Below the pieces are notes generated by a model. That model saw only the letters and a list, made by a program, of their open reading frames with translations. It did not search any database and was not told the origin of the DNA. From the IMG/VR virus record IMGVR_UViG_3300034198_030405: 20,000 bases of DNA, one strand, 5' to 3'. The position numbers and the translations under genes were made by a program. This document shows positions 4,843 to 19,789 of this stretch, one piece after another. Every line of letters starts with the position of its first letter. The first letter of the stretch is position 1. The stretch comes from an uncultured virus (IMG/VR IMGVR_UViG_3300034198_030405) (Duplodnaviria > Heunggongvirae > Uroviricota > Caudoviricetes).

Positions 4843-5730
4843 TTAGTACTTGGAAAGTTCTTGGAGATACGGGCTGCATGTCTGTGATGTGAATTGTGAG
4901 GACTCCTCAACAATTCTACTGTCAGCAGGGGCATCATCTGTTGCGACGATGTCATGCATTGCCTGTTCTCTGAGAAAGTCAACTTGGTCACGCTCGGTCC
5001 TGTCAAACAGGCCGATGGTGTAATCGATGTTTTCTGCAATGAATGTTGCAGACTTGCCATCAAGAACACGCTTGACATATTCACGCTTTTTAATTGGAAG
5101 AGTAGATGTCTTCTCCGTAAGGATCAGATCTGCTTGTGATTTAACAAGCTTTTCTTCCAACAACCGAGCGCGGCGTTGTACTTTCTCAAGCTCTGTATGA
5201 GCTTCATTAATTTGGTTTTTGCCATCAATCACTGCTGTTCTTATCGACTCACCCATGAGAGCGGAATCAATGGCAAGATGTTGGCGAAGATTTTCTAAAA
5301 CATGCTGAGCTTTACGCTCAATCACTGCTTTGTTTATGAATTCTTGTGGAATTGCTTGTTCCAAATATACTTCAAGATATCTGCTCATTGATTTAACGAG
5401 GCTTTTCTTGAACTGTGCTGCTTCATTTGCAAGGGCTGTTTTGTACTTTTTAACAACTCTGTTGAGCTTAACAGCATTATTTGTATCAATTGCTTCTGCA
5501 AGTTTAAGAAGCTTGCCAGTATGATTTCCATCAATTGTCTCAAGAAGCGATTGTAGCTTATCTGCATATTCTGCATCCTGACTCACAAGCGCTGCTTCAA
5601 TATTAAGAGTAGACTTTTCGTCTACCGCTTTATCGAAAGCTTCTTGGACTGCTACTAAGGATTCCTCTGAAAGAATGCCTTCGGTGGCTTCTTTAATTAT
5701 GTCTACGAAGTTGTTGTTGGTATTTCCCAT
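4843..5730 (-). CDS. g22: Prohead core scaffolding protein gp22
   Basis: Acidic, helical 295 aa protein located between the protease and g23. Confidence 0.85.
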   Translation of the reverse strand: MGNTNNNFVDIIKEATEGILSEESLVAVQEAFDKAVDEKSTLNIEAALVSQDAEYADKLQSLLETIDGNHTGKLLKLAEAIDTNNAVKLNRVVKKYKTALANEAAQFKKSLVKSMSRYLEVYLEQAIPQEFINKAVIERKAQHVLENLRQHLAIDSALMGESIRTAVIDGKNQINEAHTELEKVQRRARLLEEKLVKSQADLILTEKTSTLPIKKREYVKRVLDGKSATFIAENIDYTIGLFDRTERDQVDFLREQAMHDIVATDDAPADSRIVEESSQFTSQTCSPYLQELSKY

Positions 5731-5888: not shown

Positions 5889-6554
5889 TTATTTAATCAG
5901 GTTAATGAATTTAATGATGTGTTCACGCAAAAATACATCTAAATTTTTCTTCGGTAAACGTGAGATGTTTCGCTCAAAACTATCATAGGATTCTTGATAC
6001 TTGCCATCAGTCGCAACTACCCACTGCTTGCTCTCAAGTATACCATTAACAAACGCTTTTGGATATGAAGGATCCGCAACGCAATCAATTGCCACCAATC
6101 GCATTTCTTTAACAACGGAGGTGCCATTGCTTTCAGAAACCAATTGACCAAGAGCTCTTGAGCTCATGCCAACTTTCACACCATCATTGATGAGAGCTCT
6201 GACAATTAGACCGCATGGTGTTGAAAGAACTTTGCTCTTGCCATAAAATACATTGCCTTCCTGCCATAAATCAGTAACAATGTGACATGCACGTTCCAAA
6301 TCTACATCAGCGGTAGTTGGATGATTGAGCTCTCCCATTGCACGTCCCGTTTTAATCATTTCAGATGTATATCGTGTAACTTCACGAGTCATCTCCTCCA
6401 ATGGGTATAGCCGCTTGTTTCTATTTACACCATTTGCCATCATATATGGACCTTTGATAAAAAGAGTTGCAGGTGCATTACGATCCTTTTCTTCAAGAAT
6501 GTATTCAAACTCTTCCTGTGGAGCTGGTTTTTCTACTAGCAATTTAAACGCCAT
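5889..6554 (-). CDS. g21: Prohead protease gp21, probable start MAFKLL at 6554
   Basis: N.N.R.YP, RAMGELNHP (catalytic His), G.SSRALG (catalytic Ser), D.VADPS.P.AFVNGILES. Perfect TATAAATA at 6560-6567. Confidence 0.95.
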   Translation of the reverse strand: MAFKLLVEKPAPQEEFEYILEEKDRNAPATLFIKGPYMMANGVNRNKRLYPLEEMTREVTRYTSEMIKTGRAMGELNHPTTADVDLERACHIVTDLWQEGNVFYGKSKVLSTPCGLIVRALINDGVKVGMSSRALGQLVSESNGTSVVKEMRLVAIDCVADPSYPKAFVNGILESKQWVVATDGKYQESYDSFERNISRLPKKNLDVFLREHIIKFINLIK

Positions 6555-6559
6555 ATTCG

Positions 6560-6567
6560 TATTTATA
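6560..6567 (-). promoter_or_regulatory. T4-type late promoter TATAAATA (representative; perfect copies also at 1375-1382 and 3191-3198)
   Basis: Exact match to the T4 gp55 late promoter consensus, 5 nt before the ATG; variants precede most genes. Confidence 0.8.
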
Positions 6568-6640
6568 TTAGTAAGCATAAATTATACGCTTTATATCATA
6601 CATCATAGACTTTTTATGCTTGAAACATAACATACTAGCA

Positions 6641-7941: not shown

Positions 7942-9729
7942 CTATTCACCTGCTTCAGGTGGTGCTGCTGCTGCTGCTTCTGGTGGCGCTTCAACTTCTG
8001 GCGGTGCCTCTACAGCTGCAGGCCCGCCTGCAAATTCAGGTGGAATACCTGCTGGGCCTGCACCACCGGCAGGGGGAGCACCCCCAGTCTCGCCACCTGC
8101 ACCACCACCACCACCACCTGCACCACCACCCATCATAAGTTTCCAATATGGACCAGAGTTAGTGATCTGATTAAGCTCCCATTCCAATTCTTTATCTGCG
8201 CGTAGATACTCTCTATTAGCTTTGATATCAATGTCACTCCAGCTGAGTAATTTTTTCTGCAAATATGTTTGAGAAATTGTTGCATTTGAAGCAAGGTTAT
8301 TAAAGTTGCTCACTTTAATTTCCAATCTCTGACTCTGGCGTAGCTCATAATAATTAGTAGGCGGATTAAATTCTACATCCAAATAATAATCTTTGAGATT
8401 CCATTTATCCCACAGCCCCTTGAGGTGTAGATGAGTAAAGAAACCTCTTTTGAGGCCCGTAGCAAACAACTGCTGCATTCTAATGACAAATCTTGCGAAT
8501 TTTAATTCTTCACGCAAAATTGAACTGTCGGCAGAAATTTGTGATTGTGGATCAAGTCTATTGACTGGTACTTTGAGTGCTTCGTATAGTTTTTTGACAA
8601 AATACATTAAGTCTGTCAATTCACCAAGATTCTGACCGCCAGGCAATTGTGTTACATTTGTACCTTCAGATCCAGCTCTCTTGGCAAACCAAAAACTATC
8701 CAGCATGCTCTGTGGGTTAAATTTTCTAACCACATCGTTCTGATCAACATCAAAAGTCTTGCTGCTCCAATATTGCTGAATAAGCTTGCGTAGATAAGCT
8801 TCTGCCTTGGGTGGTGCCATGTTGCCTACATCAACATTAAAAATAAGACGCTCTGGCGCACGCACCAAACGATAAATTACAATGGCATCTTCAATGAGAG
8901 ACAATTGACGATATGCACGGCGGGCGTTTTCAATGAAAGGCAGGCGCACTGTTTTATTTTGATTCCAAATGCCGCTGTTAATGTATACAACCTGATTCTC
9001 CTGCATAGGAATCATCTTCTCTTCAATTTTTTTCTTAGGATTAGTTGCATCAAAAATTGGCTTTCTATATAGAAAGCCTTTAACAATCATGTTTTGAATA
9101 TTGTTGTAAACTGGATCTACTAATTCCGTAGGCATTCTAATTGTGCCTAATACACCCTGCTCGGGATATTTTTTGTGAATGATGTGTTCAAAAAATAACT
9201 CCCCTTCAATTAAAAGTTCTCGAAAATATGCCCAGCCTTTATTTTCGAGATCATAGAACTGAATGTATTTCTGAAATTCTAGCTGCAGCTGTTCATGATC
9301 AACTGCGTCCATTGTGAAGTTTCTAAGCCTTATATTGACAATGTTGTTTTGTGAATCGCGATTAATCATTTCATCACAAACTTCATCCAATGCATTGGAT
9401 ACTTCTGCAAATGCCGCCATTACTCTGTAATCCTGCATGCGTGAACCTTTATCTTGTTGCACATTTGCATACATGAGATCCCCAAAGTTCACATCTTTGA
9501 ATTCACCATATCCTGCAGAGAACAGGTTAGATTGTGATACAGAATTTCTGGCAAGTGCTTCGTTTCTGCGAATACCGGTTTCTTCAAATGTTTTGAATTT
9601 AGGATTTTCTTTTTCTGTAAAATCCAGAACATTAAAACCAGAATATGGCAGCTTAGAAGAAATGTAGGTCATTAACTGCCTACCAAATGTTTGCTGCACA
9701 TTGGATTGATTACTATAAGAAGAGTCCAT
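7942..9729 (-). CDS. g20: Portal vertex protein gp20 with a Gly/Pro/Ala-rich C-terminal tail
   Basis: QL.LIEDAIVIYR..RAPER.IF.VDVGNM.P.KAE.Y, SML..FW..R.G..GT.V..LPGGQNLGE..D..YF.KKLY.AL.VP..R, I.REELKF..F..R. Confidence 0.97.
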   Translation of the reverse strand: MDSSYSNQSNVQQTFGRQLMTYISSKLPYSGFNVLDFTEKENPKFKTFEETGIRRNEALARNSVSQSNLFSAGYGEFKDVNFGDLMYANVQQDKGSRMQDYRVMAAFAEVSNALDEVCDEMINRDSQNNIVNIRLRNFTMDAVDHEQLQLEFQKYIQFYDLENKGWAYFRELLIEGELFFEHIIHKKYPEQGVLGTIRMPTELVDPVYNNIQNMIVKGFLYRKPIFDATNPKKKIEEKMIPMQENQVVYINSGIWNQNKTVRLPFIENARRAYRQLSLIEDAIVIYRLVRAPERLIFNVDVGNMAPPKAEAYLRKLIQQYWSSKTFDVDQNDVVRKFNPQSMLDSFWFAKRAGSEGTNVTQLPGGQNLGELTDLMYFVKKLYEALKVPVNRLDPQSQISADSSILREELKFARFVIRMQQLFATGLKRGFFTHLHLKGLWDKWNLKDYYLDVEFNPPTNYYELRQSQRLEIKVSNFNNLASNATISQTYLQKKLLSWSDIDIKANREYLRADKELEWELNQITNSGPYWKLMMGGGAGGGGGGAGGETGGAPPAGGAGPAGIPPEFAGGPAAVEAPPEVEAPPEAAAAAPPEAGE

Positions 9730-9760
9730 TCTAGTTATTTAGTTGCTTAACAGCGAACAG

Positions 9761-10912
9761 CTACACAACATTAATAAAAACACTTTGATTGGCGCTATAA
9801 GATGTGTCATATCCTGCCTCATTGATGACTGCAACGGTAAATTTACCTGCTGCAGAAAGTGTAGGCAGTGTAACTGTCATTACATTATCGTTAATAATGC
9901 TATAACTGTTAATTAAAAAACACGAAATAGGCGGGTAATATGCAAAGTTGAGTGCAGTCAATGACTTGTAAAATAATGCATTGCTGCTGCTAAGTGCTAC
10001 AGCAGATGTATTAGTGAATCTCTTGCCTAATAAAGTAATGGCTCCACCTGATACAAATGAATTAATGGTATAATTTGATGTAATGTTTTCACCGATGCCC
10101 GTTCTTGTTGCATAATATATATTGGTAATAGTTGGAGCAGCAGATATACTCACTGTTTCCACAAAACCTCCTATATTTGATGCGCTCAATGTTGCATACT
10201 CATCCAGCGTTGAGTATATGAAATTATATGGATTACCAGATAGTTGTCTGGTAGCATAAAAATTAGCATCAATGAAGAATATATTTTTTACTTTATTTGT
10301 TGGTGCTTCTGGGAATAACCAGCCTTTAATTGTAAAGCTTGTATCTGCAGTTACTCTATAAACATCTGTTGGTGTTTGGTCACCTGGATAAGCTAAACTA
10401 ATGGACCCACTCCAATCAACTTCTGTTCGTATTTCGTAAGTTTTGCTCAAATTATAAGATGCAGGAATTTTCCAGCTTATGATGAGATATGGATTTACAT
10501 ATGATGCAAAGTTGGAAATAATTTGTTCTAAATCTGTTTGATACTTAGCAATGATGCTCATGTTTACTGATACATTCACCGGTACAGGTGAAAATACCTG
10601 ATTAGAAAACGCAGCATACTCATTATTTGTGTCTGAAGCAGGGTAGTAGAATCCATCAAGCTTGTTAAAAACACGAGATGGATCTCTTGCAATTTGTGTA
10701 ATATGCAGAGATACAGCAGGCAATGTAATATTTTTGCCCTTGTTTATAATATCATACAGCACCCGCTGCTTGGGTGCATATATATACCGCACATTGATTT
10801 GATCTTTTGTTCCACGCGAGCCTGTGAATCTCTTAATCACACAATCATCAAATGCAGCAATGAATTGTGTGATTAGATCTTCAATCTCAAAATGAAATGC
10901 CTGGTTTTCCAT
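9761..10912 (-). CDS. g15: Tail sheath stabiliser/terminator gp15-like with C-terminal Ig-like extension
   Basis: YAPKQR, LP..S..I..I..D..R..NK and PVP.N......I.AK...D..QI......FNP-like (YVNP) motifs. The C-terminal part resembles an IPT/TIG domain (APTITNI, ITLLG.RF, D..MTVTLP, V.VIN.AG). Confidence 0.8.
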   Translation of the reverse strand: MENQAFHFEIEDLITQFIAAFDDCVIKRFTGSRGTKDQINVRYIYAPKQRVLYDIINKGKNITLPAVSLHITQIARDPSRVFNKLDGFYYPASDTNNEYAAFSNQVFSPVPVNVSVNMSIIAKYQTDLEQIISNFASYVNPYLIISWKIPASYNLSKTYEIRTEVDWSGSISLAYPGDQTPTDVYRVTADTSFTIKGWLFPEAPTNKVKNIFFIDANFYATRQLSGNPYNFIYSTLDEYATLSASNIGGFVETVSISAAPTITNIYYATRTGIGENITSNYTINSFVSGGAITLLGKRFTNTSAVALSSSNALFYKSLTALNFAYYPPISCFLINSYSIINDNVMTVTLPTLSAAGKFTVAVINEAGYDTSYSANQSVFINVV

Positions 10913-10927
10913 GCAGTTATTTATGCA

Positions 10928-12163
10928 TCATGCAAGCAATGCCGATACAGGTACACCCTTATCAGCAAGTTTGAATGGTCTACCTTCAGGCGATAATAGT
11001 ACATGATTGATAGGCAGACCTGCAGCTGCAGCAATGGTAGCATTAAAATCAGCTGGTGATATAATGTTTTCTACTGCTTTCATTCCCTTGTCATCAGACT
11101 TACCGTAAACTTGCCCACCTTTGATGCCTGCACCAATGAGTACACCACAAAATGCACCGGGGTGATGGTCGCGTCCATCATTAATGTTGATTATAGGTGT
11201 GCGTCCAAAGTCAGTAGCAATGACAATGAGTGTCTTGTTAAGTAGTCCACTTGACTGCAAATCATTAATGAGCGCATTTAGCGCTTGATCTAAAATGGCT
11301 AATTTTGTTTCTAAAGAATCAAAATTATCAACATGTGTATCCCACCCGCCATCAGAGACTTCAATGAATTTGCATCCACCTTTTTCAATGAGACGTTTTG
11401 CTAAGCAGCAGCCTTGACCAAAGCGATTGTTGCCATATCTTTCTCTAGCCATTGCATCTTCCTTGGATAAATCAAACACATCAATTTCAGTACTGTTGAG
11501 CAGGCGAATAGTTTGGTCATAAAATTCTGCATAACTTTTTTGTAATGGGTTCACAACCTTATTTGAGTCCCTTTCAAGTTGTTGCAAAATATATACTCGC
11601 TTGGAAAATTCTGATGCATCTTTAATTTTTGTGTTATCTAAACCTCTTACTGGATCAGCAATGGGAATGGGTGAATATTTTTTAGGCATCCAACCTGCAC
11701 CAGGATGATCAGCAGTACCTGAGATAAGTACATTCTCGGGAATGATTTTTTTCTCATGTGTATCTGTAAGATTGCACATCCATGCACCCAAATTTGGATG
11801 CACTATGGTACCAATTTTCTTAAATGAAGTTCTTTGAATGTATTGTGCACCAGCATGGTCTCCTGTTGTGACCATCATGCTACGAACAATGGACATTTTA
11901 TCACCATGCTTAGCAAGCTTAGACAAATGTTCAGAAATTTGATGACCGGCATTAGTAGTGATGGCATTAAATTTCCCCTTGACATCGGCATTAATTTTTG
12001 GGTCAAATGTATCCAAATGACTCATGCCTCCATTCATAAAAAGATAAATGATATGCTCTGCTTTACTGGCTGCGGGTGAAGCAGCAATGTTAGGAAGAAC
12101 TGTTACGCCCAAGCCTGCTGAAGCAAGATTGAGTACAAAGTTGCGACGTGTTAATGTTTCCAT
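10928..12163 (-). CDS. DUF1501 family protein (Planctomycetes/Verrucomicrobia type) with Tat signal
   Basis: N-terminal TRRNFV twin-arginine motif; IIYLFMNGGMSHLDTFDPK, YG.N.FGQGC.LA.RL.E.G..F.EV, GWDTH, DFGRTP.IN...GRDH.P. Confidence 0.9.
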   Translation of the reverse strand: METLTRRNFVLNLASAGLGVTVLPNIAASPAASKAEHIIYLFMNGGMSHLDTFDPKINADVKGKFNAITTNAGHQISEHLSKLAKHGDKMSIVRSMMVTTGDHAGAQYIQRTSFKKIGTIVHPNLGAWMCNLTDTHEKKIIPENVLISGTADHPGAGWMPKKYSPIPIADPVRGLDNTKIKDASEFSKRVYILQQLERDSNKVVNPLQKSYAEFYDQTIRLLNSTEIDVFDLSKEDAMARERYGNNRFGQGCCLAKRLIEKGGCKFIEVSDGGWDTHVDNFDSLETKLAILDQALNALINDLQSSGLLNKTLIVIATDFGRTPIININDGRDHHPGAFCGVLIGAGIKGGQVYGKSDDKGMKAVENIISPADFNATIAAAAGLPINHVLLSPEGRPFKLADKGVPVSALLA

Positions 12164-12167
12164 AATG

Positions 12168-13946
12168 TTATTTATTAAATTTAAATTCAGAACTGTTAAT
12201 TAGGGCCCAAATAATATCATCATTTTGACACCCTGCAAAGTTTGCCTTTTCAGCTATACTAGGCCTTCTTGATAGAATGGATTTAAAAATAATGTCAATG
12301 GTCTCTGCAGGTGATTTGCCAGAAACATTCTTTGCAAGTTGTGTGTTTGCATTAGCTGCAATGTCAATAAGCTGCCCATTCATAAAAGATATAACCTGTG
12401 TGACACTACCCTCTTTGCTGCTGGAATCGATAAGCTCTCGATCTCCTCTGCCCAACTGCTCTAAAATAGTATTAACATTACTGGTGTCGTTGACTTCGGA
12501 TGCACGCATTAAATTATAGTTTTTATACTTTGACACACCATCATATTTTCCACCAATTGCTTTTTGATAATCTGCATATTTGGTGCGAATATATTCTAGA
12601 GTCACATCATTTGACTGCATGAGCATAATTTTAGCATATGCATCATGAAAGGTTAATTTGAAGTTTTCCGGCGATTCAATGGCAATTGCAACAACTGAAT
12701 CCCAAAGTTGCTCTGCACTTAATCTATATTTTACTGGGCCAATGAATATAAACTTAGTAGAGTTCATATTAGCACCATCATACAACTCTCGTTGAAATAA
12801 TTTGGTATTATACAATACATATAGAAATTGTCTGCTATCATAATTTAATTTGATCATGATATCAGCTAAAACATTCATTAAATCACTTTGCAGCAAATCA
12901 CTATCATGAATATTGTCATACTGCCCAATGATGTACTTTCCAAATACCCATTTCCAATATCTATTGACAATGTTTTTAGTAAAGGTGGGATGATTGGCAT
13001 TCACCATCCATTCAACTGCATCTTTGCGCATATCATCCTTATTTTTGATGGTTGTCTTTCCGCTCAGTACCACTGGCTCAACAACATCAAATGGCTTACC
13101 ATCTGTATACTGATAGTCATGCGGCAATTTGAGCTGCTTATTAGCTTCAATTGTCAAGTCAGAACGCATGGCTCTAATAAAATTATTAATCTGATTGTTG
13201 AGACCTCTATTTTTTATTGGATCAGCTTTGATGAGTTCATCCATTTGTAGTCTTAATACTTTTATTTTTTCGTTAAATTCTTTACTATCTTTGCTGCGCA
13301 ATTCTACTTGATTGAATAGCGCTGCCATTCCATAAAATTGTTTTTGTGTAAAATCCTGGAATGGATCATCATGGCACTGTGCGCAACTAATGTTGATGCC
13401 TAAAAATACTTTGCTAGTGGCAATGAGGTTATCCATGGGCATACCCAAGTCTCTGTAATAATATCCTACCGCAGGTGAGGTAAAATAATTACCACTTGAA
13501 AGAAGTAAATCAGATACAAATTGATTGTACGGCTTGTTTGATGCTAGCTGGTCTTTGATATAGTCAATGTATACAGCACCATGAAAGTTATTGACATTGT
13601 TGAGTCTATCACGCAATCTTAATGATTCTGCCCAAAAATTAAACATGTGCGAAACATGCCCGGGATGTCTGATGAGATATTGAATCAAACCACTGCGTTT
13701 ATTTGCATCATTAACATTGCTAAACATTTGATATTCCTCAAATGTAGGATTGCGTCCTATGATGGCGAGATATGCTCGACGTACAAAAGCATCATCATTA
13801 ATGAATTGCAGAGGTGTAATTTTTGATACAACATACTGCTTATCTAGGACAGCGTCAATTTTTTTGCTATAACTGCTGAGCTGTTCAACAGTTGCACCAA
13901 ATGTCAACGTGCACATTCCTACTAAAACCGCAATTAATTTTTTCAT
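12168..13946 (-). CDS. DUF1549 + DUF1553 (PSD1-type) domain protein with Sec signal and CxxCH motif
   Basis: Signal MKKLIAVLVGMCTLTFGA; D..FVRR.YL.IIGR.PT, NKPY.QFV..LL, FLG..I.CAQCHDDPF, P.F..N.VNR.W...FG, RL.AEQLWDS, S..Q....MNG, DI.WALINS.EF.F. Confidence 0.9.
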   Translation of the reverse strand: MKKLIAVLVGMCTLTFGATVEQLSSYSKKIDAVLDKQYVVSKITPLQFINDDAFVRRAYLAIIGRNPTFEEYQMFSNVNDANKRSGLIQYLIRHPGHVSHMFNFWAESLRLRDRLNNVNNFHGAVYIDYIKDQLASNKPYNQFVSDLLLSSGNYFTSPAVGYYYRDLGMPMDNLIATSKVFLGINISCAQCHDDPFQDFTQKQFYGMAALFNQVELRSKDSKEFNEKIKVLRLQMDELIKADPIKNRGLNNQINNFIRAMRSDLTIEANKQLKLPHDYQYTDGKPFDVVEPVVLSGKTTIKNKDDMRKDAVEWMVNANHPTFTKNIVNRYWKWVFGKYIIGQYDNIHDSDLLQSDLMNVLADIMIKLNYDSRQFLYVLYNTKLFQRELYDGANMNSTKFIFIGPVKYRLSAEQLWDSVVAIAIESPENFKLTFHDAYAKIMLMQSNDVTLEYIRTKYADYQKAIGGKYDGVSKYKNYNLMRASEVNDTSNVNTILEQLGRGDRELIDSSSKEGSVTQVISFMNGQLIDIAANANTQLAKNVSGKSPAETIDIIFKSILSRRPSIAEKANFAGCQNDDIIWALINSSEFKFNK

Positions 13947-13951
13947 AATTA

Positions 13952-14719
13952 TTATTTATTCTTTTTATGCAATCTAAAATCAAAGTCATCTTGAAACTGA
14001 GATGTTGCTGCTTTATATGATTGTTTAGTTTCATCACTAGCATCATCTGTAAACTGCCAATACAATGACATAGGCACTGGCGACTTGAACCCAAACATCT
14101 CAAAAACTTGGCGCTGCGTTTGCATAACTTGTTTATCTTTCCAGTTGTGGCCTATTACTATGATGCCTGCTTCTTTATTTTCGAGTAAGTTGCTCTCACC
14201 CAAACAGCTCCATCTATTTTCTAACCATGTGAGTCGTTCTATGAGTTTTTGGTATATTGAATTAGTCTGTCCCCACCTCACACTTGTAAAAAATACAACT
14301 GCATTTGCTTCAAATATCTTGTTAGCAATTTTATAAATTTCATCATCTCTATGTTTAGCTTCCCAACATCTTATTAACCCAGTTGGATTTTTTGATGAAC
14401 TTTTTAATAGAGCATCTTTTGCACCGCAAATATTCCCAGACGCTAAACTAACATTACCGGAACAGCACCTAATATTGAGCTTATCTGCTTCAATGATGTT
14501 AATAGTTTGATCTGGAAGCATGTCTTTTATATGATATGCAAGTTGTGTAGATTTTGCTTTTTGTTCGGAACCAGACCATCTGTTGCTAGTTGTTACGAAC
14601 AAAACATTATTTTTTGATCTTAAAGAGTCAGCAAACTCATTCATCTCATTTTGCATTTGCGAAGTAGTGTGCAATTTTTTTTCCGAAATAATAGAATTAA
14701 AAGTATTGTTGAAGCTCAT
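13952..14719 (-). CDS. Flavodoxin-like / NADPH-dependent FMN reductase (iron-sulfur flavoprotein-like)
   Basis: TTSNR...KST FMN loop, Cys cluster CCSGNVS...NICG...RCW, DD..., VVF.TSVRWG...S.YQKLIERL, K.AG.IV.GHN. Confidence 0.8.
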   Translation of the reverse strand: MSFNNTFNSIISEKKLHTTSQMQNEMNEFADSLRSKNNVLFVTTSNRWSGSEQKAKSTQLAYHIKDMLPDQTINIIEADKLNIRCCSGNVSLASGNICGAKDALLKSSSKNPTGLIRCWEAKHRDDEIYKIANKIFEANAVVFFTSVRWGQTNSIYQKLIERLTWLENRWSCLGESNLLENKEAGIIVIGHNWKDKQVMQTQRQVFEMFGFKSPVPMSLYWQFTDDASDETKQSYKAATSQFQDDFDFRLHKKNK

Positions 14720-14746
14720 ATTTGTATTTAGAGAATAAATAGATAC

Positions 14747-15073
14747 ATGCCAGTACCTACAACAAACAATGGAGTTACATATTACAACCTCAATACATGT
14801 AAGTCTTTCAGCGTTGCATTAGACACCAATTTAAAAGCTCTTCCCTTTCAGGTGTGTTCAGAAGTCATTATAAAAAATACAACTGGGCAAGGCATTGCTG
14901 TATACGATCAAAACAATTTTGCTGTGTCAAATGCATTTCGCTTGTCAGCAGATCAAGAATTTACATTTAGAGGTCTTACCAACAGCTCACAAGTAAGCGC
15001 ACAAACAACCGCAGGTGCTGGTCAGCTGTCCATAAGAACACAGTTCTTTTCATTCTCTAATCAAGGCGTTTAA
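14747..15073 (+). CDS. Hypothetical beta-rich protein
   Basis: 108 aa ORF; AATAAATA (14734-14741) 5 nt before the ATG; stop overlaps the convergent DUF1501 stop. Confidence 0.75.
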   Translation: MPVPTTNNGVTYYNLNTCKSFSVALDTNLKALPFQVCSEVIIKNTTGQGIAVYDQNNFAVSNAFRLSADQEFTFRGLTNSSQVSAQTTAGAGQLSIRTQFFSFSNQGV

Positions 15074-16326
15074 ACAATGATTTGCTCAATGGGCTGAGCT
15101 TCATAGACAATTTCTACAGGGCGCAAATCAGGTGTCATGAGGGTCTTTCTAGGATTAATGCCCATGAGATGGTACATTGTAGCAGCTAACTGACCGGGGG
15201 TAACTGGATCTGTATCTGGTTCCGATGCTAATGCATCACTGGTTCCATATGCAAATCCTGCCTTGGTTCCGCCCCCAGCAAGTACAGAAGAGAATACACG
15301 AGGCCAATGATCGCGGCCATTGGTTTGATTGATTTTAGGTGTGCGTCCAAATTCAGATGTAACTAAGACTAATGTAGAATCAAGCAATCCGCGTTGCCTT
15401 AAGTCTGCAATAAGTGCAGCAAAAGCTTTATCAAAACTAACCATGTTTTGCTCAAATGCACTCTTGATGTTGCTATGATGATCCCAGCTACCATATGTTA
15501 CGGTGACCATTCGAACACCTGCTTCAACCAATCTACGTGCAAGCAGCAATCGCTGACCAGCAGCATTTTTTCCATATGTCTCTCTTACTGAATCTGTTTC
15601 TTTTGATATCTCAAATGCTTCACGAGCCTGGGTAGAAGAAATCATATTATAAGCATCATTATAAAACGAATCAGATGCTTTAATTGCATCAGCACGTGAT
15701 TCTCTTGTTTTAAAATAATCATCTACAATGCCGAGCATTTTTTTGCGTCGCTCAAACATCTCATTTGTCACACCAGTGGGCAGTTTTAGATCCCTGACTA
15801 CAAACGATGGATCCTCTGGATTTGAGCCTAGTGCAAATGGTCCGAAACGGGTTGATAAGTAACCAGTGCCATTCTCGGGAGCAAATTGATTTGGCACGAG
15901 CACATACGCGGGTAGATTGTTTCTACTGCCGAGCTCATGATTAATAACGCTTCCAAAAGAAGGGTAAGATAATGCTGGAGATGGCTTGTAGCCTGTGAGC
16001 ATATTATGTACTCCGCGCTCATGAGCAGCTTCACCATGTGTCATGGATCTTATGACTGTCAATTCATTGCTAATATTTGCCGTATTTTGCAGCAAAGAGC
16101 CAAAATAAACTCCATCAATTTTAGTCTTAATACCTCCAAAAGGTCCCCTGTAATCAGACGATCCATTGGGTTTATAGTCCCATGCATCCTGATGTGCAAT
16201 GCCGCCAGGTAGGAAAATTTGAATTACAGATGTTGCTTTTGCTGCATTTGTAGATTGCGCTCTGAGTAAAGCAGGAAGTGATGCACCTGCTGCAGCACCT
16301 ACTCGAATAAATTCTCTGCGGTTCAT
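15070..16326 (-). CDS. Second DUF1501 family protein with Tat signal, probable start MNRREF at 16326
   Basis: NRREFI twin-arginine motif; VIQIFLPGGIAHQDAWDYKP, YG...AGQR.LLARRLVEAGVR.VTV, WDHH, SEFGRTPKIN...GRDHWP. TAAATA 5 nt upstream. Confidence 0.9.
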   Translation of the reverse strand: MNRREFIRVGAAAGASLPALLRAQSTNAAKATSVIQIFLPGGIAHQDAWDYKPNGSSDYRGPFGGIKTKIDGVYFGSLLQNTANISNELTVIRSMTHGEAAHERGVHNMLTGYKPSPALSYPSFGSVINHELGSRNNLPAYVLVPNQFAPENGTGYLSTRFGPFALGSNPEDPSFVVRDLKLPTGVTNEMFERRKKMLGIVDDYFKTRESRADAIKASDSFYNDAYNMISSTQAREAFEISKETDSVRETYGKNAAGQRLLLARRLVEAGVRMVTVTYGSWDHHSNIKSAFEQNMVSFDKAFAALIADLRQRGLLDSTLVLVTSEFGRTPKINQTNGRDHWPRVFSSVLAGGGTKAGFAYGTSDALASEPDTDPVTPGQLAATMYHLMGINPRKTLMTPDLRPVEIVYEAQPIEQIIV

Positions 16327-16355
16327 ATGTGTATTTAACCAGTGTATATTACATT

Positions 16356-16685
16356 TCAATTGCTCTTATTATCGTCAAAGAACTTTATCGGATTTTTAGC
16401 AAATCTAGCAGCAATTTTTATTAAACCATTAATGAGTTCTGGGCTAACTACACCCACCACGCCATATACAATGGCTTTGGTTAAGCTAGCAAGTTCAGTC
16501 TGTTCAAGCACAAACCATGCAATGCCAGAGCAAAGAGATGCAGCAAGTATTCTTTTAAAAATTTCATAAGCTGAATGTCTTATTCCACTGCAAAGTATTC
16601 TTGCTCCCATGCCCGAAGCACCGACAATGAGGATAATCCACCCACCGCTTAAAAATTCATTAATTAAATTTTTGTGATCGCTCAT
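16356..16685 (-). CDS. Putative holin-like membrane protein
   Basis: 109 aa with about 3 hydrophobic segments and a charged C-terminus; late box at 16692-16699. Confidence 0.55.
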   Translation of the reverse strand: MSDHKNLINEFLSGGWIILIVGASGMGARILCSGIRHSAYEIFKRILAASLCSGIAWFVLEQTELASLTKAIVYGVVGVVSPELINGLIKIAARFAKNPIKFFDDNKSN

Positions 16686-16777
16686 TATTAATATTTATTT
16701 TTTGAGCTAGCTTAAAATGAAAAAATAAAAAAAATATAATAATGCTGCCATTATTATATTTTTTAGTGTAGAAGTTT

Positions 16778-17994: not shown

Positions 17995-18060
17995 TGGCGG
18001 CCCGTTAACTTCACCTGAAATTTGGAATCTCAGATGCCTAGGATTAACCAGCGACGGGCC
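17995..18060 (-). ncRNA. T-armless tRNA-like RNA with a CCA (Trp) loop
   Basis: Perfect 7 bp acceptor GGCCCGT/ACGGGCC-GCCA, 4 bp D-like stem, 8-9 bp stem with loop TTCCAAA, no T-arm. Confidence 0.5.
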
Positions 18061-18089
18061 AAGCGCTGGAGACGCACGCGTACTAGAAT

Positions 18090-18176
18090 TGGAGGACATA
18101 CAGAGTATCGCACTCTGCGTAGGAATTTAATCCACGTGGTTTTGCAGACCACTGCGTTCACTAGCTCGCTATTTGA
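18090..18176 (-). tRNA. tRNA-Cys(GCA)-like with long variable arm and degenerate 5' acceptor strand
   Basis: GTGGT-CTGCAAA-ACCAC; variable region GTGGATTAAATTCCTAC; T-arm CAGAG-TGCGATA-CTCTG; 3' TATGTCC-TCCA only partly pairs with the 5' strand. Confidence 0.6.
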
Positions 18177-18189
18177 AAATTGAAAATTT

Positions 18190-18330
18190 AGCGCCACACG
18201 GGGTAGCAAAGCCCGCTGGCGCTCGCAGAACATTCGCAAAGCTTGTGCAAGCGCGCTTACTATCAGAGCCGTCAGAGGTACTCGGCTTGCAAGATCGACC
18301 TCTGAGATTGCGGTTGATTGAATGTTCTGA
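18190..18330 (-). ncRNA. Unidentified GC-rich structured RNA inside the tRNA array
   Basis: 10 bp closing stem (18226-18235 / 18320-18329), 8 bp inner stem (18272-18279 / 18298-18305), and a 3' hairpin (18190-18196 / 18217-18223). Confidence 0.55.
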
Positions 18331-18333
18331 AAT

Positions 18334-18409
18334 TGGTGCCCGAGGTGAGACTCAAACTCACGATAGTCTGCGTGTAAGGCAGATACTTTAGTCACTAAGT
18401 TACTCAGGC
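18334..18409 (-). tRNA. tRNA-Val(TAC)
   Basis: GCCTGAG/CTCGGGC-ACCA; TCTGC-CTTACAC-GCAGA; T-arm GTGAG-TTTGAGT-CTCAC. Confidence 0.85.
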
Positions 18410-18417
18410 ATTTAAAA

Positions 18418-18579
18418 TTATTTTTTCTTCTTGAACCAACATATGATTTTTTTGATTAAATCCAGCGAGATAATTGGAATGAACCCTTCTCTATAGCCGT
18501 ATTTCTCAGCATTTTTTATATCTTGTGCCTTTTGCAAATGATTACTTTGTTCATTCCAGCTTTCGTTATTTTTATTCAT
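18418..18579 (-). CDS. Small hypothetical protein (MNKNNESW..., 53 aa) within the tRNA array
   Basis: The ORF lies between two tRNAs; the longer start at 18618 falls inside tRNA-Met. Confidence 0.5.
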   Translation of the reverse strand: MNKNNESWNEQSNHLQKAQDIKNAEKYGYREGFIPIISLDLIKKIICWFKKKK

Positions 18580-18586
18580 ATGAAAT

Positions 18587-18673
18587 TGGTTGCGGGGGCT
18601 GGACTCGAACCAGCACAAGCAATAATGTCTTCTGGTTATGAGCCAGACGTGTTAACCGTTACACTACCCCGCG
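18587..18673 (-). tRNA. tRNA-Met(CAT), initiator-like, with enlarged variable region
   Basis: 5' CGCGGGG with C1:A72 mismatch; TCTGG-CTCATAA-CCAGA; 16 nt variable region; GCTGG-TTCGAGT-CCAGC; ACCA end. Confidence 0.85.
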
Positions 18674-18715
18674 TTTAAAATTTAAATTAGACCACTTACT
18701 TACAATTTTGAAATT

Positions 18716-18750
18716 TGGCTCCCAAGCGTGGGGTTGAACCACGTTCAACT
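18716..18750 (-). pseudogene. tRNA 3' half remnant
   Basis: CGTGG-TTCAACC-CCACG-CTTGGGA-GCCA with no matching 5' half upstream. Confidence 0.55.
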
Positions 18751-18758
18751 GTTTAAAT

Positions 18759-18833
18759 TGGTGAACCTTAACGGTAATGCTCCGTTTTCTAGAAGTTAAA
18801 AGCTTCTTGCTTCACTGTTAAAGCTTAAGGTTC
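18759..18833 (-). tRNA. tRNA-Lys(TTT) with non-canonical T-loop
   Basis: GAACCTT/AAGGTTC-ACCA; AGAAG-CTTTTAA-CTTCT; AACGG-AGCATTA-CCGTT. Confidence 0.85.
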
Positions 18834-18850
18834 TTCTGTTAAAAGGAAAT

Positions 18851-18902
18851 TGGTCGCTCCCATGGGATTTGCACCCGTATCATTACAAGTGCCTACGGAG
18901 CA
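18851..18902 (-). pseudogene. Internally deleted mini-tRNA (~52 nt)
   Basis: GCTCC/GGAGC acceptor with GACCA end and T-arm GGG-TGCAAAT-CCC; D-arm absent; vestigial CA-CTTGTAA-TG loop. Confidence 0.5.
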
Positions 18903-18946
18903 TTAAAATTAATGCTTAGATTTTCAATATACCTGATGTATATCGA

Positions 18947-19324
18947 TTAACGCTGAAACGCTCTGCCTAGTATAGGCTTTTGTTGTGGAGCAGCTACATT
19001 ACCTGTAGTAAGCTTTTCAACCTCTTGTTTAAATGCGTCTAAGCTTTTAAATTGCTTTTGATCTAAACTAGCAAGCAATTCACTATTATTCGGCGTTGGT
19101 GATTTAAACGACGTACCTAAAATTTTATTTGCATCACCCTTTACTGAGACAGTAACGATACCATTATACACTGCTATACGTGCAACATCTTGTCCATTTA
19201 CAGCAACATTATATTGGTCTGCATTGCCTGGTGATTTACCTTGTTGCATTAATTCAACAGCTTCTTTAAAGAGTACCTTATTGATATATTTTTCAGCGAG
19301 AATATCTCGGTCTTTACGTGTCAT
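18947..19324 (-). CDS. Hypothetical protein with late promoter, inside the tRNA array
   Basis: 125 aa ORF; CATAAATA at 19331-19338. Confidence 0.75.
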   Translation of the reverse strand: MTRKDRDILAEKYINKVLFKEAVELMQQGKSPGNADQYNVAVNGQDVARIAVYNGIVTVSVKGDANKILGTSFKSPTPNNSELLASLDQKQFKSLDAFKQEVEKLTTGNVAAPQQKPILGRAFQR

Positions 19325-19377
19325 ATGTTTTATTTATGCAAAATGTTATAATTTTGTTATTAACAATAACAAAAATT

Positions 19378-19454
19378 TGGTGCCCGTAGAAGGATTCGAA
19401 CCCTCAACATTATGATCCTAAGTCATACGCCTCTACCAATTGGGCTATACGGGC
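19378..19454 (-). tRNA. tRNA-Leu(TAG) with short variable loop
   Basis: GCCCGTA/TACGGGC-ACCA; TATGA-CTTAGGA-TCATA; GGTTCGAATCC. Confidence 0.9.
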
Positions 19455-19462
19455 ATTTAAAC

Positions 19463-19542
19463 TGGCGAGCATGGCAGGAATTGCACCCGCATGTTTCTAA
19501 TTAACCTTTCAACGCGTTCGTAGCGCGAGGGTATACATGCTC
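19463..19542 (-). tRNA. D-armless tRNA-Arg(ACG)-like RNA with long extra region
   Basis: GAGCATG/CATGCTC-GCCA; CGCG-CTACGAA-CGCG; T-arm GCGGG-TGCAATT-CCTGC; no D-arm. Confidence 0.6.
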
Positions 19543-19550
19543 ATTTAAAA

Positions 19551-19626
19551 TGGCATCCGGTGTAGGAATCGAACCTACCCACTCAGATTTGGAGTCTAAG
19601 TCGCCAGCCTTGGAACATTACCGGAT
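19551..19626 (-). tRNA. tRNA-Trp(CCA)
   Basis: ATCCGGT/ACCGGAT-GCCA; TTAGA-CTCCAAA-TCTGA; GTAGG-TTCGATT-CCTAC. Confidence 0.9.
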
Positions 19627-19632
19627 ATAAAT

Positions 19633-19706
19633 TGGTCTTTCTGGCAGGAATTGAACCTGCGTCGCTGCCTTATCAAGACAGAGCTAAACCACTCAGCTAC
19701 AGAAGG
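19633..19706 (-). tRNA. tRNA-Ile(GAT)
   Basis: CCTTCTG/CAGAAAG-ACCA (1 mismatch); CTGTC-TTGATAA-GGCAG; GCAGG-TTCAATT-CCTGC. Confidence 0.8.
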
Positions 19707-19714
19707 TTTAAAAT

Positions 19715-19789
19715 TAGTACCTCTAGTTGGATTTGCACCAACGTCTATGGTTTATCGGTCCATTGCTAAAGCTACTCAGCTACAGAGGC
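19715..19789 (-). tRNA. Second tRNA-Ile(GAT)-like copy, partly degenerate
   Basis: Shares CTGTAGCTGAGT..TTTAGC with the adjacent Ile tRNA; loop CCGATAA (C33), A:A mismatch closing the anticodon stem, ends ACTA. Confidence 0.6.

Follow-up and report, generated by a model that had tools for sequence, protein, structure and literature searches.

Introduction

Kamneva et al. (2012, PMC3542564) described a "conserved genetic module" in Planctomycetes, Verrucomicrobia and Lentisphaerae, in which DUF1501 genes occur together with PSCyt1, PSCyt2 and PSD1 genes. PSCyt genes are present in freshwater Verrucomicrobia, and the cellular paralogues are often fused to carbohydrate-binding modules and encoded beside sulfatases (He et al., 2017, PMC5615132). 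In the sections of both papers that treat these families, the function of DUF1501 and PSCyt is termed unknown.

The stretch of DNA analysed here, referred to as the window, comprises 20,000 nucleotides of an uncultured virus (IMG/VR record IMGVR_UViG_3300034198_030405). Its source is a T4-like myovirus from freshwater, uncultured and with a genome of about 200 kb, that has no close cultured relative. The T4-type portal gene gp20 (7942..9729, minus strand; Pfam Portal_T4, 1.1e-95) shows best identities of only 29–32%, to cyanophages, in a tblastn search of 50,697 phage records. A PSCyt2/PSD1 (DUF1549/DUF1553) gene, an adjoining DUF1501 gene and a second, lone DUF1501 gene lie close to this portal gene. 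Features shared with the cellular module, as set out in the relevant sections of Kamneva et al. (2012) and He et al. (2017), are the two Pfam families, their order (PSCyt/PSD1 gene, then DUF1501), the putative twin-arginine signal on DUF1501, and the apparent signal peptide and the CxxCH motif on its partner. In contrast to the 21 to 106 or more DUF1501 matches per genome in four PVC genomes, the phage has one pair and one lone DUF1501 gene. Its module is also minimal, lacking PSCyt1 as well as any carbohydrate-binding or protein-interaction domain, unlike the PVC module of those sections. The phage copies form clades of their own, at most 47% (A-type, best 80 of at least 585 relatives) and 62% (B-type) identical to the sampled cellular proteins.

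No paper on phage copies of this set was found in literature searches, in agreement with the original prediction, which knew of no such phage gene set. The cyanophage genes pstS and phoA serve nutrient acquisition in the periplasm as auxiliary metabolic genes of phages. The present module resembles them in being a host-derived, exported set of a large aquatic phage of T4-like type, which some near-identical genomes have and others lack. It differs in protein family, in its two-subunit design and in its PVC-type rather than cyanobacterial origin.

Organization of the locus

The A-type DUF1501 gene (10928..12163, minus strand) encodes 411 amino acids and matches Pfam PF07394 over profile positions 1–389 of 390 (E = 2e-95, 320.7 bits, cut-off 27). 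Adjacent and co-oriented is the PSCyt2/PSD1 gene (12168..13946, minus strand; 592 amino acids), whose stop codon is separated from the DUF1501-A ATG by a gap of 4 nt. In its product a PSCyt2 domain (PF07583, residues 29–215; 6.2e-34, 118.2 bits, cut-off 29.8) precedes a PSD1 domain (PF07587, residues 307–570; 4.9e-23, 82.2 bits, cut-off 28.5). Directly downstream of the module is the gene for the tail-sheath stabiliser gp15 (9761..10912, minus strand; Pfam T4-gp15_tss, 9e-20; phrog_227), followed by the portal gene. Pfam matches and coordinates thus bear out the predicted arrangement of a Sec-signal, CAQCH-containing gene and a Tat-type DUF1501 gene upstream of gp15 and portal.

The B-type DUF1501 gene (15070..16326, minus strand) is equally secure (PF07394, 1.1e-109, 367.7 bits, cut-off 27, positions 1–390 of 390) and is, as predicted, divergent, with 29% identity to DUF1501-A. 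It likely starts at the ATG at 16326, giving 418 amino acids; the listed reading frame opens at a TTG at 16359. The protein also matches Pfam Phosphodiest weakly (3.4e-4), and its gene has no adjoining PSCyt partner, its usual cellular neighbour. The next gene (16356..16685, minus strand) encodes a holin-like protein of 109 amino acids with three hydrophobic segments by hydropathy. This protein has no Pfam or PHROGs match, and ESM Atlas clusters with Phage_holin_3_3 or Phage_holin_3_1 (scores 0.91–0.93) serve as a lead only. Pfam searches found no endolysin within the window.

Two further genes lie between the exported ones. The predicted flavodoxin-like gene (13952..14719, minus strand; 255 amino acids, no signal peptide) falls below the Pfam threshold for FMN_red (E = 6.8e-5, 22.9 bits, cut-off 24), but an Atlas lead points the same way: its nearest clusters are 77–100% viral, and FMN_red occurs in 15–89% of the members of three of the four listed. 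An FMN-reductase/flavodoxin fold is likely. The family is phage-typical and stands outside the PVC module; among the relatives it is found only in L007, L008 and L039. On the opposite strand a 108-amino-acid reading frame (14747..15073, plus strand) has zero matches in Pfam, PHROGs and NCBIfam; it is kept in L004, L007, L008, L013, L014 and L020 with dN/dS of 0.05–0.14.

Export signals were judged by eye from the translations. At the N-terminus of both DUF1501 proteins stands a twin-arginine motif (MET-L-T-R-R-N-F-V and M-N-R-R-E-F-I) that leads into a hydrophobic stretch, and R6 and R7 show no variation across 97 A-type sequences. The PSCyt2/PSD1 N-terminus, MKKLIAVLVGMCTLTFGA, resembles a Sec signal. 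These readings are in keeping with the predicted Tat-like export of both DUF1501 proteins and Sec-like export of the partner.

Phage ownership and selection

The order PSCyt2/PSD1, DUF1501-A, gp15, portal recurs in seven related viral contigs (L004, L005, L007, L008, L013, L014 and L020), and three truncated contigs (L021–L023) retain DUF1501-A, gp15 and portal, so that the suggested search for T4-like contigs of the same synteny was productive. Two relatives lie in records with direct terminal repeats rated 100% complete by CheckV, L008 (224,703 bp) and L006 (184,542 bp), each with two DUF1501 genes and one PSCyt2 gene. In IMG/VR as a whole, 138 of 161 pattern matches encode relatives. Of the 36 viral loci in the first scan, a script counted 31 with the pair in the same order; it overlooks L035 and L036, in which the two genes share a 4-nt overlap, and contig ends cut three more.

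The DNA between 10912 and 16356 does not result from a chimeric junction, which would have refuted the original prediction. A 53-kb contig of run X1, possibly the window's own source, covers 10800–16700 with one difference; X2, which belongs to another study, has a 4.1-kb contig that covers 10800–14374 with 63 differences; and X6, from a third study, bridges 10800–11387 and 16301–16637. The G+C content is 34–43% across the module and 33–48% in 1-kb windows, the module having a composition like that of its flanks. For the three exported genes dN/dS is 0.03–0.12 (seven pairwise comparisons), as against 0.01–0.17 for gp15, gp23 and the protease; purifying selection on them is as strong as on structural genes. 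With the gene-start motif described below, these results sustain the claim of phage ownership, and we are confident that the module is phage-borne, intact, selected and of PVC type.

One relative, L039, has lost the pair. The record that contains it measures 203,774 bp, with completeness rated at 96%, and its flanking proteins are 99–100% identical to those of the window. The missing 2617 nt run exactly between two copies of the 11-nt direct repeat CATTAATGATG, the left at 13793..13803 (minus strand; PSCyt2/PSD1 codons 48–51) and the right at 11176..11186 (minus strand; DUF1501-A, around codons 326–329). The L039 genome has no second PSCyt2 gene. The pair is therefore dispensable.

Cellular relatives and likely host

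A sample of 600 stretches gave at least 585 cellular relatives of DUF1501-A. The best 80 of these have identities of 33–47%, and all their records naming a phylum are from Verrucomicrobiota or Planctomycetota; four say only "bacterium". A PSCyt2/PSD1 gene lies directly upstream in 59 of 70 A-type cellular loci, as in the phage. Relatives of the B-type at 56–62% identity occur in 4 of 301 sampled genomes of the Verrucomicrobia, the phylum of G007, the genome that holds locus L115. Trees against PVC paralogues place the sampled phage DUF1501 genes in three well-supported clades, the B clade being sister to two PVC cellular genes.

Since the family is PVC-specific, the predicted PVC-superphylum host is likely, and the phage most likely infects Verrucomicrobiota or Planctomycetota. 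This assignment is drawn entirely from gene phylogeny, and the G+C content counts against it, that of three cellular loci checked being 54–63%, well above the phage's 33–48%.

A gene-start motif

The hexamer TAAATA stands 5–6 nt ahead of the ATG in all six module genes, among them the four for which it had been claimed, and likewise before gp15, portal and three other reading frames. The box of DUF1501-A (12169..12174, minus strand), 5 nt before the ATG, overlaps the preceding gene's stop codon. Similar boxes on the minus strand are at 13953–13958, 14725–14730, 16332–16337, 16692–16697, 10918–10923 and 9736–9741, and one on the plus strand (14736–14741) lies back to back with the divergent box at 14725–14730. 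Within the window TAAATA precedes 11 of 22 gene starts and only 4 of the remaining 920 ATGs (Fisher p = 7.5e-17); across the whole window the 6-mer is not enriched (31 found, 25.9 expected). It is thus a real gene-start signal. The further claim that the capsid genes have the same box holds for portal and gp15. It fails for gp23, which has AGGA instead, and for the reading frame at 4843–5730, and it holds for the protease only if the start is at 6554. In L006 the motif is absent before the DnaB, gp32 and exonuclease genes, and in L028 before the RNR gene.

The T4 late promoter consensus is TATAAATA. The boxes share its core TAAATA, often as ATAAATA, and precede structural-type genes. They may be late promoters; the full 8-mer has only 3 occurrences in the window, with 2.08 expected. 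They differ in their fixed distance to the ATG, with no Shine-Dalgarno sequence in between. At this spacing the mRNAs would be leaderless if the box is a promoter; otherwise it would be a translation or coupling signal.

Predicted structures and a probable complex

The AF2 model of DUF1501-A (pLDDT 89.7) matches 183 PDB chains at Foldseek E ≤ 0.001, and all those listed belong to the alkaline-phosphatase superfamily, the fold that the model assigns to DUF1501. Its best neighbours by VIA are ENPP6 (Z 20.8, rmsd 2.9 over 246 residues) and PafA (Z 20.6 over 276), with sulfatases at Z of about 18–19 (choline sulfatase, 18.8). The fold does not reveal the substrate class, because the NPP and PafA values (about 20–21) are so close to those of the sulfatases. 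The core fold is common to NPPs, PafA and S1 sulfatases, and conserved Asp and His residues of DUF1501 could bind metal; invariant in 97 A-type sequences, besides the two arginines, are S48, D51, D54, H103, H122, D275, H277 and H333. The differences are considerable: sequence identity is 9–16%, a helical insertion (about residues 183–262) is peculiar to DUF1501, the C/S-x-P-x-R formylglycine sulfatase signature ([CS].P.R) is absent from both DUF1501 proteins, and no conserved Ser, Thr or Cys nucleophile occupies the canonical position of the fold. DUF1501-B of the window has Ala in place of the A-type Ser/Thr (GGIAHQD). We know of no NPP, PafA or S1 sulfatase that needs a CxxCH partner.

The partner is modelled as an all-alpha protein (pLDDT 87.4, pTM 0.89) with no PDB match at Foldseek E ≤ 0.001; by VIA, residues 410–592 come closest to a phycobilisome-linker domain, with a Z of 5.6. 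Its single CxxCH motif, CAQCH at residues 188–192 (codons at 13371..13385, minus strand), is invariant in 72 of 72 aligned homologues, as is M169. Together with the Sec-type signal, these residues suggest that the protein may bind haem.

Co-folding of the two proteins, as had been proposed, gave a score of 0.75 (runs 0.74–0.77), compared with 0.01 for the best of three controls, and passed a mark that 116 of 157 solved complexes attain, along with 2 of 215 mismatched pairs. At least 93% of contacts are common to the runs, with partner pLDDT of at least 87, and the result does not reflect a memorised structure, because the PDB has no homologue of the partner. The 61 interface residues take in 9 of 29 invariant PSCyt2/PSD1 residues (p = 0.0018), M169, C188, Q190 and C191 being at the interface on this side and H103, H277 and H333 on the DUF1501-A side; invariant residues of DUF1501 are not enriched there (6 of 34, p = 0.46). 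The output gives interface residues rather than contacting residue pairs at the active site. Most of the predicted partner contacts come from the helical insertion. A heterodimer, with DUF1501-A as its predicted catalytic subunit, is a probable arrangement on these models.

Proposed function and alternatives

In the reading that we prefer, the Sec-exported PSCyt2/PSD1 protein would receive a c-type haem at C188, C191 and H192, with M169 as distal ligand, and in the periplasm would bind the Tat-exported, metal-loaded DUF1501-A, the predicted fold of which is closest to NPP-type phosphodiesterases and the PafA phosphatase. With the haem motif at the mouth of the DUF1501 metal site, the two would make up a two-subunit periplasmic metallo-enzyme, which would probably cleave organic substrates of phospho- or sulfo-ester type, perhaps with redox assistance. 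The phage copy would be an auxiliary metabolic set that keeps or adds a host activity during host shutdown, for example by scavenging P, S or C for progeny production, and it would be condition-dependent rather than essential. Taken whole, from PVC-type set to heterodimeric periplasmic metallo-enzyme with an auxiliary metabolic role, this account has a little less than an even chance of being right. Nutrient scavenging by the pair is a more tentative proposal, and the presumed late-type expression beside structural genes, unexpected for a nutrient-acquisition gene, counts against it.

The original prediction had proposed envelope remodelling or lysis. On that account, which we think unlikely, the exported proteins would act late on glycans or lipids of the host envelope, as LtaS, EptA and YejM do, aiding lysis and release or blocking superinfection rather than feeding metabolism. 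The neighbourhood part of the proposal stood, the holin-like gene, whose product has three hydrophobic segments, being directly upstream of DUF1501-B in the window and in L007, L008, L013, L014 and L039, and the gene-start motif is common to module and structural genes. LtaS and YejM are among the Foldseek matches of DUF1501. The pair adjoins glycosyltransferases and an RmlD-like gene in L019 and lies near PfkB, cytidylyltransferase, methyltransferase and cupin genes in L028, and amidases occur in L015 and L028. The contexts in other phages are nevertheless varied and include no fixed lysis neighbour; in L006 the pair lies between gp32/DnaB and a 5'-3' exonuclease, and in L035 between Pol III alpha/ClpB and reading frames without a known family. 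LtaS, EptA and YejM are membrane-anchored, whereas DUF1501 has no hydrophobic segment besides its signal by hydropathy. The tens of paralogues in cells, and the fusions to carbohydrate-binding modules and sulfatase neighbours in the relevant sections of He et al. (2017, PMC5615132), fit substrate-diverse catabolism better, and the deletion in L039 also speaks against an envelope or lysis role.

Alternatively, the haem protein might exchange electrons with the DUF1501 metal centre in an oxidoreductase that serves periplasmic redox balance or respiration during infection, a theme that the cytoplasmic FMN-reductase-like gene would share. We regard this as improbable, although the invariant CxxCH and Met169 at the predicted interface would suit it. 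Maturation of c-type cytochromes goes with Sec export of the CxxCH protein, as here. Tat export of the partner is consistent with cytoplasmic loading of a cofactor, as argued in the pertinent section of Kamneva et al. (2012, PMC3542564), and PSCyt genes are enriched in oxic-layer genomes in the survey portion of He et al. (2017, PMC5615132). Against this, the FMN-reductase-like gene has neither a signal peptide nor a wide distribution among the relatives, the modelled DUF1501 fold is one of hydrolases and transferases, and haem is shown for no PSCyt protein in the sections of those two papers on these genes. That the genes are host DNA, taken up by chance or joined in error during assembly and of no use to the phage, might be read from the near-identical L039 genome without the pair, from zero PHROGs matches to the exported genes and from the lack of any tblastn match to them in the 50,697 GenBank phage records, but is extremely improbable, being already contradicted by dN/dS of 0.03–0.12, 138 viral stretches in three well-supported phage clades, complete terminal-repeat genomes that carry the genes, independent contigs bridging the junctions, flank-like composition and use of the phage's own gene-start motif.

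A bolder form of the metallo-enzyme account, which we consider doubtful as a whole, would join an obligate periplasmic heterodimer acting as an undescribed haem-assisted enzyme to at least three acquisitions by large aquatic phages and to leaderless late transcripts. The active site would be formed by both chains, the haem (Cys188/Cys191/His192/Met169) standing against the alkaline-phosphatase-fold metal centre. Such an enzyme, ester-cleaving or oxidising, would account for the hundreds of orphan paralogues of the PVC bacteria, and the transcripts would start at the ATG, 5–6 nt after TAAATA.

Significance

The largest orphan families in Planctomycetes and Verrucomicrobia include DUF1501 and the PSCyt/PSD proteins, of which the phage gives a stripped-down, single-copy, strongly selected version. 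It offers a structural hypothesis that can be tested, a heterodimer whose interface contains the CxxCH motif, and L039, near-identical but for the deletion, is a natural knock-out. Leaderless late transcription would be systematic in this phage if the TAAATA boxes act as promoters. The module further suggests PVC hosts for a deep, uncultured lineage of T4-like phages that is common in freshwater metagenomes.

Gene content and family assignments

The module adjoins a block of T4-like genes on the minus strand, which encode the major capsid protein gp23 (3300-4769), the prohead protease (5889-6578), the portal protein gp20 (7942-9729) and the tail-sheath stabiliser gp15 (9761-10912). The best cultured relatives of the portal protein are those of cyanomyoviruses, at only about 30% identity. 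The G+C content of the gp23 gene is 0.44-0.48, compared with 0.33-0.40 in its surroundings. The original prediction of two DUF1501 genes and a DUF1549/DUF1553 (PSCyt2/PSD1) gene is borne out by Pfam. DUF1501-A (10928-12163, minus strand; E 2e-95) lies just upstream of gp15; the PSCyt2/PSD1 gene (12168-13946, minus strand; 6.2e-34 and 4.9e-23) comes next, 4 nt from DUF1501-A, and DUF1501-B (15070-16326, minus strand; 1.1e-109) lies further upstream. The two DUF1501 proteins are 29% identical.

The other three genes of the module are less easily assigned. An ORF resembling FMN reductases (13952-14719, minus strand) has a Pfam match of 6.8e-5, which is under the cut-off, and its protein found only one match in the PDB, with an E-value of 0.49. 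The 108-aa ORF (14747-15073, plus strand) belongs to no family; it is convergent with DUF1501-B, with a 4-nt overlap at 15070-15073. The 109-aa protein (16356-16685, minus strand) has three hydrophobic segments and look-alikes of holin superfamily III in the ESM Atlas. None of the six module genes had a match in PHROGs or NCBIfam, and DUF1501-A had none by tblastn in 50,697 GenBank phage records. Further along, six tRNA genes (Val-TAC, Met-CAT, Leu-TAG, Trp-CCA and two Ile-GAT) occupy 18334-19789 on the minus strand; tRNA-Val is overlapped by an ORF at 18030-18395, which may be spurious or shorter.

Genuine phage genes

The module is neither a chimera nor contamination. The search of IMG/VR for the same synteny was productive: the order PSCyt2/PSD1, DUF1501-A, gp15, portal recurs in seven other viral loci (L004, L005, L007, L008, L013, L014 and L020), and DUF1501-A, gp15, portal is retained in three truncated contigs (L021-L023). 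Each of two records with direct terminal repeats, those of L008 (224,703 bp, rated 100% complete) and L006 (184,542 bp, likewise rated complete), carries two DUF1501 genes and a single PSCyt2 gene. Nor is there a chimeric junction between 10912 and 16356, since metagenomic contigs run across the junctions. Run X1, which may itself be the source of the window DNA, has a 53-kb contig that spans 10800-16700 with a single difference. In a run of another study, X2, 10800-14374 is spanned with 63 differences by a contig of 4.1 kb, and a third study contributes X6, with sequence running across 10800-11387 and 16301-16637. Recurring synteny, complete terminal-repeat genomes and junctions bridged in independent contigs all agree with the original view that these genes are the phage's own.

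Eight runs contained at least one third of the sampled words, and these are labelled as freshwater or lake metagenomes or plain "metagenome", or are unlabelled. The idea that runs with about 55-59% of the words represent a deletion variant proved wrong for X2, the one examined, in which the pair is present and the sequence differs beyond 14731. At window 14731-15007, in the area where the 108-aa ORF begins, an X2 contig carries 2308 other nucleotides in place of 275 nt. Only 36 nt of DUF1501-B (15403-15438) were aligned in X2 contigs, from which its absence from the strain does not follow. There seems to be a variable region upstream of the pair.

The gene-start box

The sequence TAAATA, starting 11-12 nt ahead of the ATG, is found at 11 of 22 gene starts and at 4 of 920 other ATGs (Fisher p 7.5e-17). 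It precedes all six module genes, including the four for which it was originally noted. The accompanying statement that capsid genes have it too applies to gp15 and portal but not to gp23, which has a Shine-Dalgarno-like AGGA instead and is alone in this among the large structural genes. In related phages TAAATA is present ahead of 11 of 25 ORFs in L008; ahead of DUF1501-B and tail-fibre-like genes in L006, but not at DnaB, gp32 or the exonuclease; and ahead of PSCyt2/PSD1 and the amidase gene in L028, but not at the RNR gene. In view of these counts and this pattern, TAAATA is a genuine gene-start signal with a late-type distribution.

Only 5-6 nt separate the box from the ATG, with no Shine-Dalgarno sequence in between, which implies either leaderless transcripts, following the geometry of T4 late promoters, or a translational or coupling signal; the two readings fit equally well. 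The box of DUF1501-A overlaps the stop codon of the upstream gene. Three of the four other boxed ATGs fall within annotated ORFs, of which they might be alternative start codons. Because the full TATAAATA stands at the usual distance upstream of internal minus-strand ATGs at 6554 and 1369, the protease, listed from 6578, probably starts at 6554, and for a 141-aa ORF annotated with a GTG start at 1447 the likely start is 1369. TAAATA is also seen before ATG 4628, within gp23, and ATG 17642 on the plus strand. At 14725-14741 two boxes stand back to back on opposite strands (TATTTA-GAGAA-TAAATA), one for the FMN-reductase-like gene and one for the 108-aa ORF, which diverge from here.

Selection and a natural deletion

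By the Nei-Gojobori method, dN/dS for DUF1501-A, PSCyt2/PSD1 and DUF1501-B was 0.03-0.12 in seven phage pairs, with several dS values close to saturation. The FMN-reductase-like gene gave 0.04-0.06 and the 108-aa ORF 0.05-0.14, and the comparison set of gp15, gp23 and protease gave 0.01-0.17. Values in which tblastn had paired paralogues were discarded (L004-L005 for B, window-L039 for A, and all B values of the L028 pairs), and the coverage filter left no values for portal.

The phage genome L039 (203,774 bp, rated 96% complete) lacks the pair, and its flanking proteins are 99-100% identical to those of the window. A stretch of 2617 nt is missing exactly between two 11-nt direct repeats, CATTAATGATG, at window 13793-13803 and 11176-11186. 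What is left (L039:11405-11806) is a relic of 133 aa, in which the signal peptide and first ~50 residues of PSCyt2/PSD1 are fused in frame to the last 83 of DUF1501-A. There is no other PSCyt2 gene in this genome, and the B-type gene is its only other DUF1501 match. The deletion between repeats, with its fusion relic, indicates that the pair belonged to the ancestral state and is dispensable, at least under some conditions.

Distribution among phages

When IMG/VR was scanned with a single protein, 38 loci were recovered; a second scan, with an alignment of 97 sequences, gave 138 relatives out of 161 pattern matches, from which the best 80 were kept. The pair was found in at least five phage contexts. 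In the window type it adjoins gp15 and portal; in L006 it lies between gp32/DnaB and a 5'-3' exonuclease; in L015 it adjoins amidase and YopX genes; in L019 it is near glycosyltransferases, an RmlD-like gene, GTP cyclohydrolase I, PTPS and PhoH; in L028 near PfkB, a cytidylyltransferase and a cupin, with RNR more distant; and in L035 near Pol III alpha and ClpB. The partner gene was absent within 1.5 kb upstream in 12 of 46 loci of the second scan. In G006 (the record of L161), a phage genome of 222 kb that belongs to the second A-type clade, PSCyt2 (49295-49849) and DUF1501 (58633-59775) are ~9 kb apart. Very divergent extra DUF1501 genes (28-34% identity, on a long tree branch) stand in tandem with the A-type gene in L031 (11233-12540) and in L159 and L160 (1191-2465).

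Cellular relatives and descent

Cellular relatives number at least 585; the best 80 are 33-47% identical to DUF1501-A and, in agreement with the PVC affinity originally proposed, are all from Verrucomicrobiota or Planctomycetota where a phylum is named, four being described only as "bacterium". A PSCyt2/PSD1 gene is directly upstream in 59 of 70 A-type cellular loci. In a quick IQ-TREE tree of 129 rows, 33 phage A-type rows formed one clade (SH-aLRT 100) and 12 B-type phage rows a separate one (100), sister to genes of a Planctomycetales MAG and a Verrucomicrobia single cell (99). A FastTree of 172 rows, with 46 more viral ones and without the long-branch rows L031_11350, L087_6773 and L110_210, gave three phage clades: B (12 rows), A-I, which includes the window (38 rows, support 96), and A-II (41 rows, support 99). 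L049 was excluded for an in-frame stop. The three phage clades would imply that the genes entered phages, or were exchanged with cells in either direction, no fewer than three times, the trees being unrooted. A specific marine Opitutia donor was considered but not adopted; the sister of the window's A-type clade is an open fork in IQ-TREE and has a support of only 29 in FastTree.

Cellular B-type genes have ordinary contexts (QueG, MeaB, MutL, TsaE). In all three loci examined (L072:5789-8464, L115:2688-5096 and L098:4009-5544) the next gene encodes a large protein with a pre-peptidase C-terminal (PPC) domain and not a PSCyt/PSD1 protein; the phage DUF1501-B has no PPC-domain neighbour. DUF1501 proteins may thus have another type of partner in the PPC-domain protein. 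A B-type relative of 56-62% identity was present in 4 of 301 genomes sampled from the phylum of the L115 genome (G007, titled Verrucomicrobia). Four PVC genomes had 21, 46, 56 and at least 106 DUF1501 matches.

Export signals and conserved residues

Inspected by eye, both DUF1501 proteins have an N-terminal twin-arginine motif followed by a hydrophobic stretch, and R6 and R7 are invariant across 97 aligned A-type sequences. The N-terminus of PSCyt2/PSD1, with Lys-Lys and a hydrophobic segment, is of the Sec type, also by eye. Its single CxxCH motif (CAQCH, residues 188-192) is invariant in 72 of 72 homologues, as is Met169. Among the 97 A-type sequences S48, D51, D54, H103, H122, D275, H277 and H333 of DUF1501-A are invariant and are candidates for a metal site. 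At the N-terminal motif DUF1501-B has GGIAHQD in the window copy and four close phage relatives, and Ser in five other phage B copies; at this position every pattern-matched A-type sequence has Ser or Thr, the pattern having missed 24 phage rows and one cellular row. The window DUF1501-B is nevertheless under purifying selection (dN/dS 0.07-0.09).

Predicted structures and a predicted complex

The AF2 model of DUF1501-A (pLDDT 89.7) has an alkaline-phosphatase-superfamily fold. Foldseek matched it to sulfatases, LtaS, sulfamidase and YejM (E 1e-8 to 1e-5). With VIA-align the highest scores were for ENPP6 (Z 20.8, rmsd 2.9, 246 aligned), PafA (20.6), and ENPP7 and Xac NPP (about 20), with sulfatases slightly lower at about 18-19; the DUF1501 proteins have no formylglycine signature. 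The PSCyt2/PSD1 model (pLDDT 87.4, pTM 0.89) is all-alpha, and against the PDB a sequence search gave nothing usable and Foldseek nothing at E<=0.001. A phycobilisome-linker domain was dismissed as a relative of its C-terminal third because the VIA Z of 5.6 is below what helical proteins attain by chance.

Co-folding of the mature PSCyt2/PSD1 and DUF1501-A chains, suggested in the original prediction, gave a score of 0.75 (runs 0.74-0.77), the best of three controls reaching 0.01, and the models support binding of the two proteins to each other. In calibration, 116 of 157 solved complexes attained this mark, compared with 2 of 215 mismatched pairs; since the alignments were custom-made, the calibration is only rough here. 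The runs share at least 93% of contacts, with partner pLDDT of at least 87. The predicted interface includes 9 of 29 invariant PSCyt2/PSD1 residues (p 0.0018), among them M169, C188, Q190 and C191. On the DUF1501 side it includes residues 99-105, 277-278 and 332-335, with H103, H277 and H333 among them; the invariant DUF1501 residues as a set are not enriched (6 of 34). We infer that the two chains would form a heterodimer in the periplasm, with the Cys/His/Met cluster, and perhaps with it a c-type haem, placed at the metal site of DUF1501. For the chain with the haem motif, export by the Sec route would suit cytochrome-c maturation; for the DUF1501 chain, export by the Tat route would suit a subunit that folds and acquires its metal in the cytoplasm.

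Role for the phage

In the original prediction the module was not known as a described phage gene set. In the titles, abstracts and passages covered by the literature searches, among them passages of Kamneva 2012 (PMC3542564), He 2017 (PMC5615132) and Wecker 2009 (PMC2754498), no description of DUF1501 or PSCyt2/PSD1 genes in phages was found.

Modification of the envelope or a receptor, linked to lysis, would suit the late-type start motif on the module genes and the holin-like neighbour. This reading is less likely than the preferred one. Catabolism is favoured by the movement of the pair between genomic contexts in different phages, by the tens of DUF1501 paralogues per cell genome, and by the carbohydrate-binding fusions and sulfatase neighbours reported for the cellular family (He 2017, PMC5615132). 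A redox role of the pair appears equally improbable.

Phosphate-acquisition genes of cyanophages are variable among near-identical genomes, as the pair is. The reading that we prefer, tentatively and as somewhat short of an even chance, is that the pair would provide the phage with an auxiliary enzyme that processes esters in the periplasm, its closest likeness being a phospho- or sulfo-ester hydrolase, and, with a lower probability, would sustain one activity of the host for nutrient supply.
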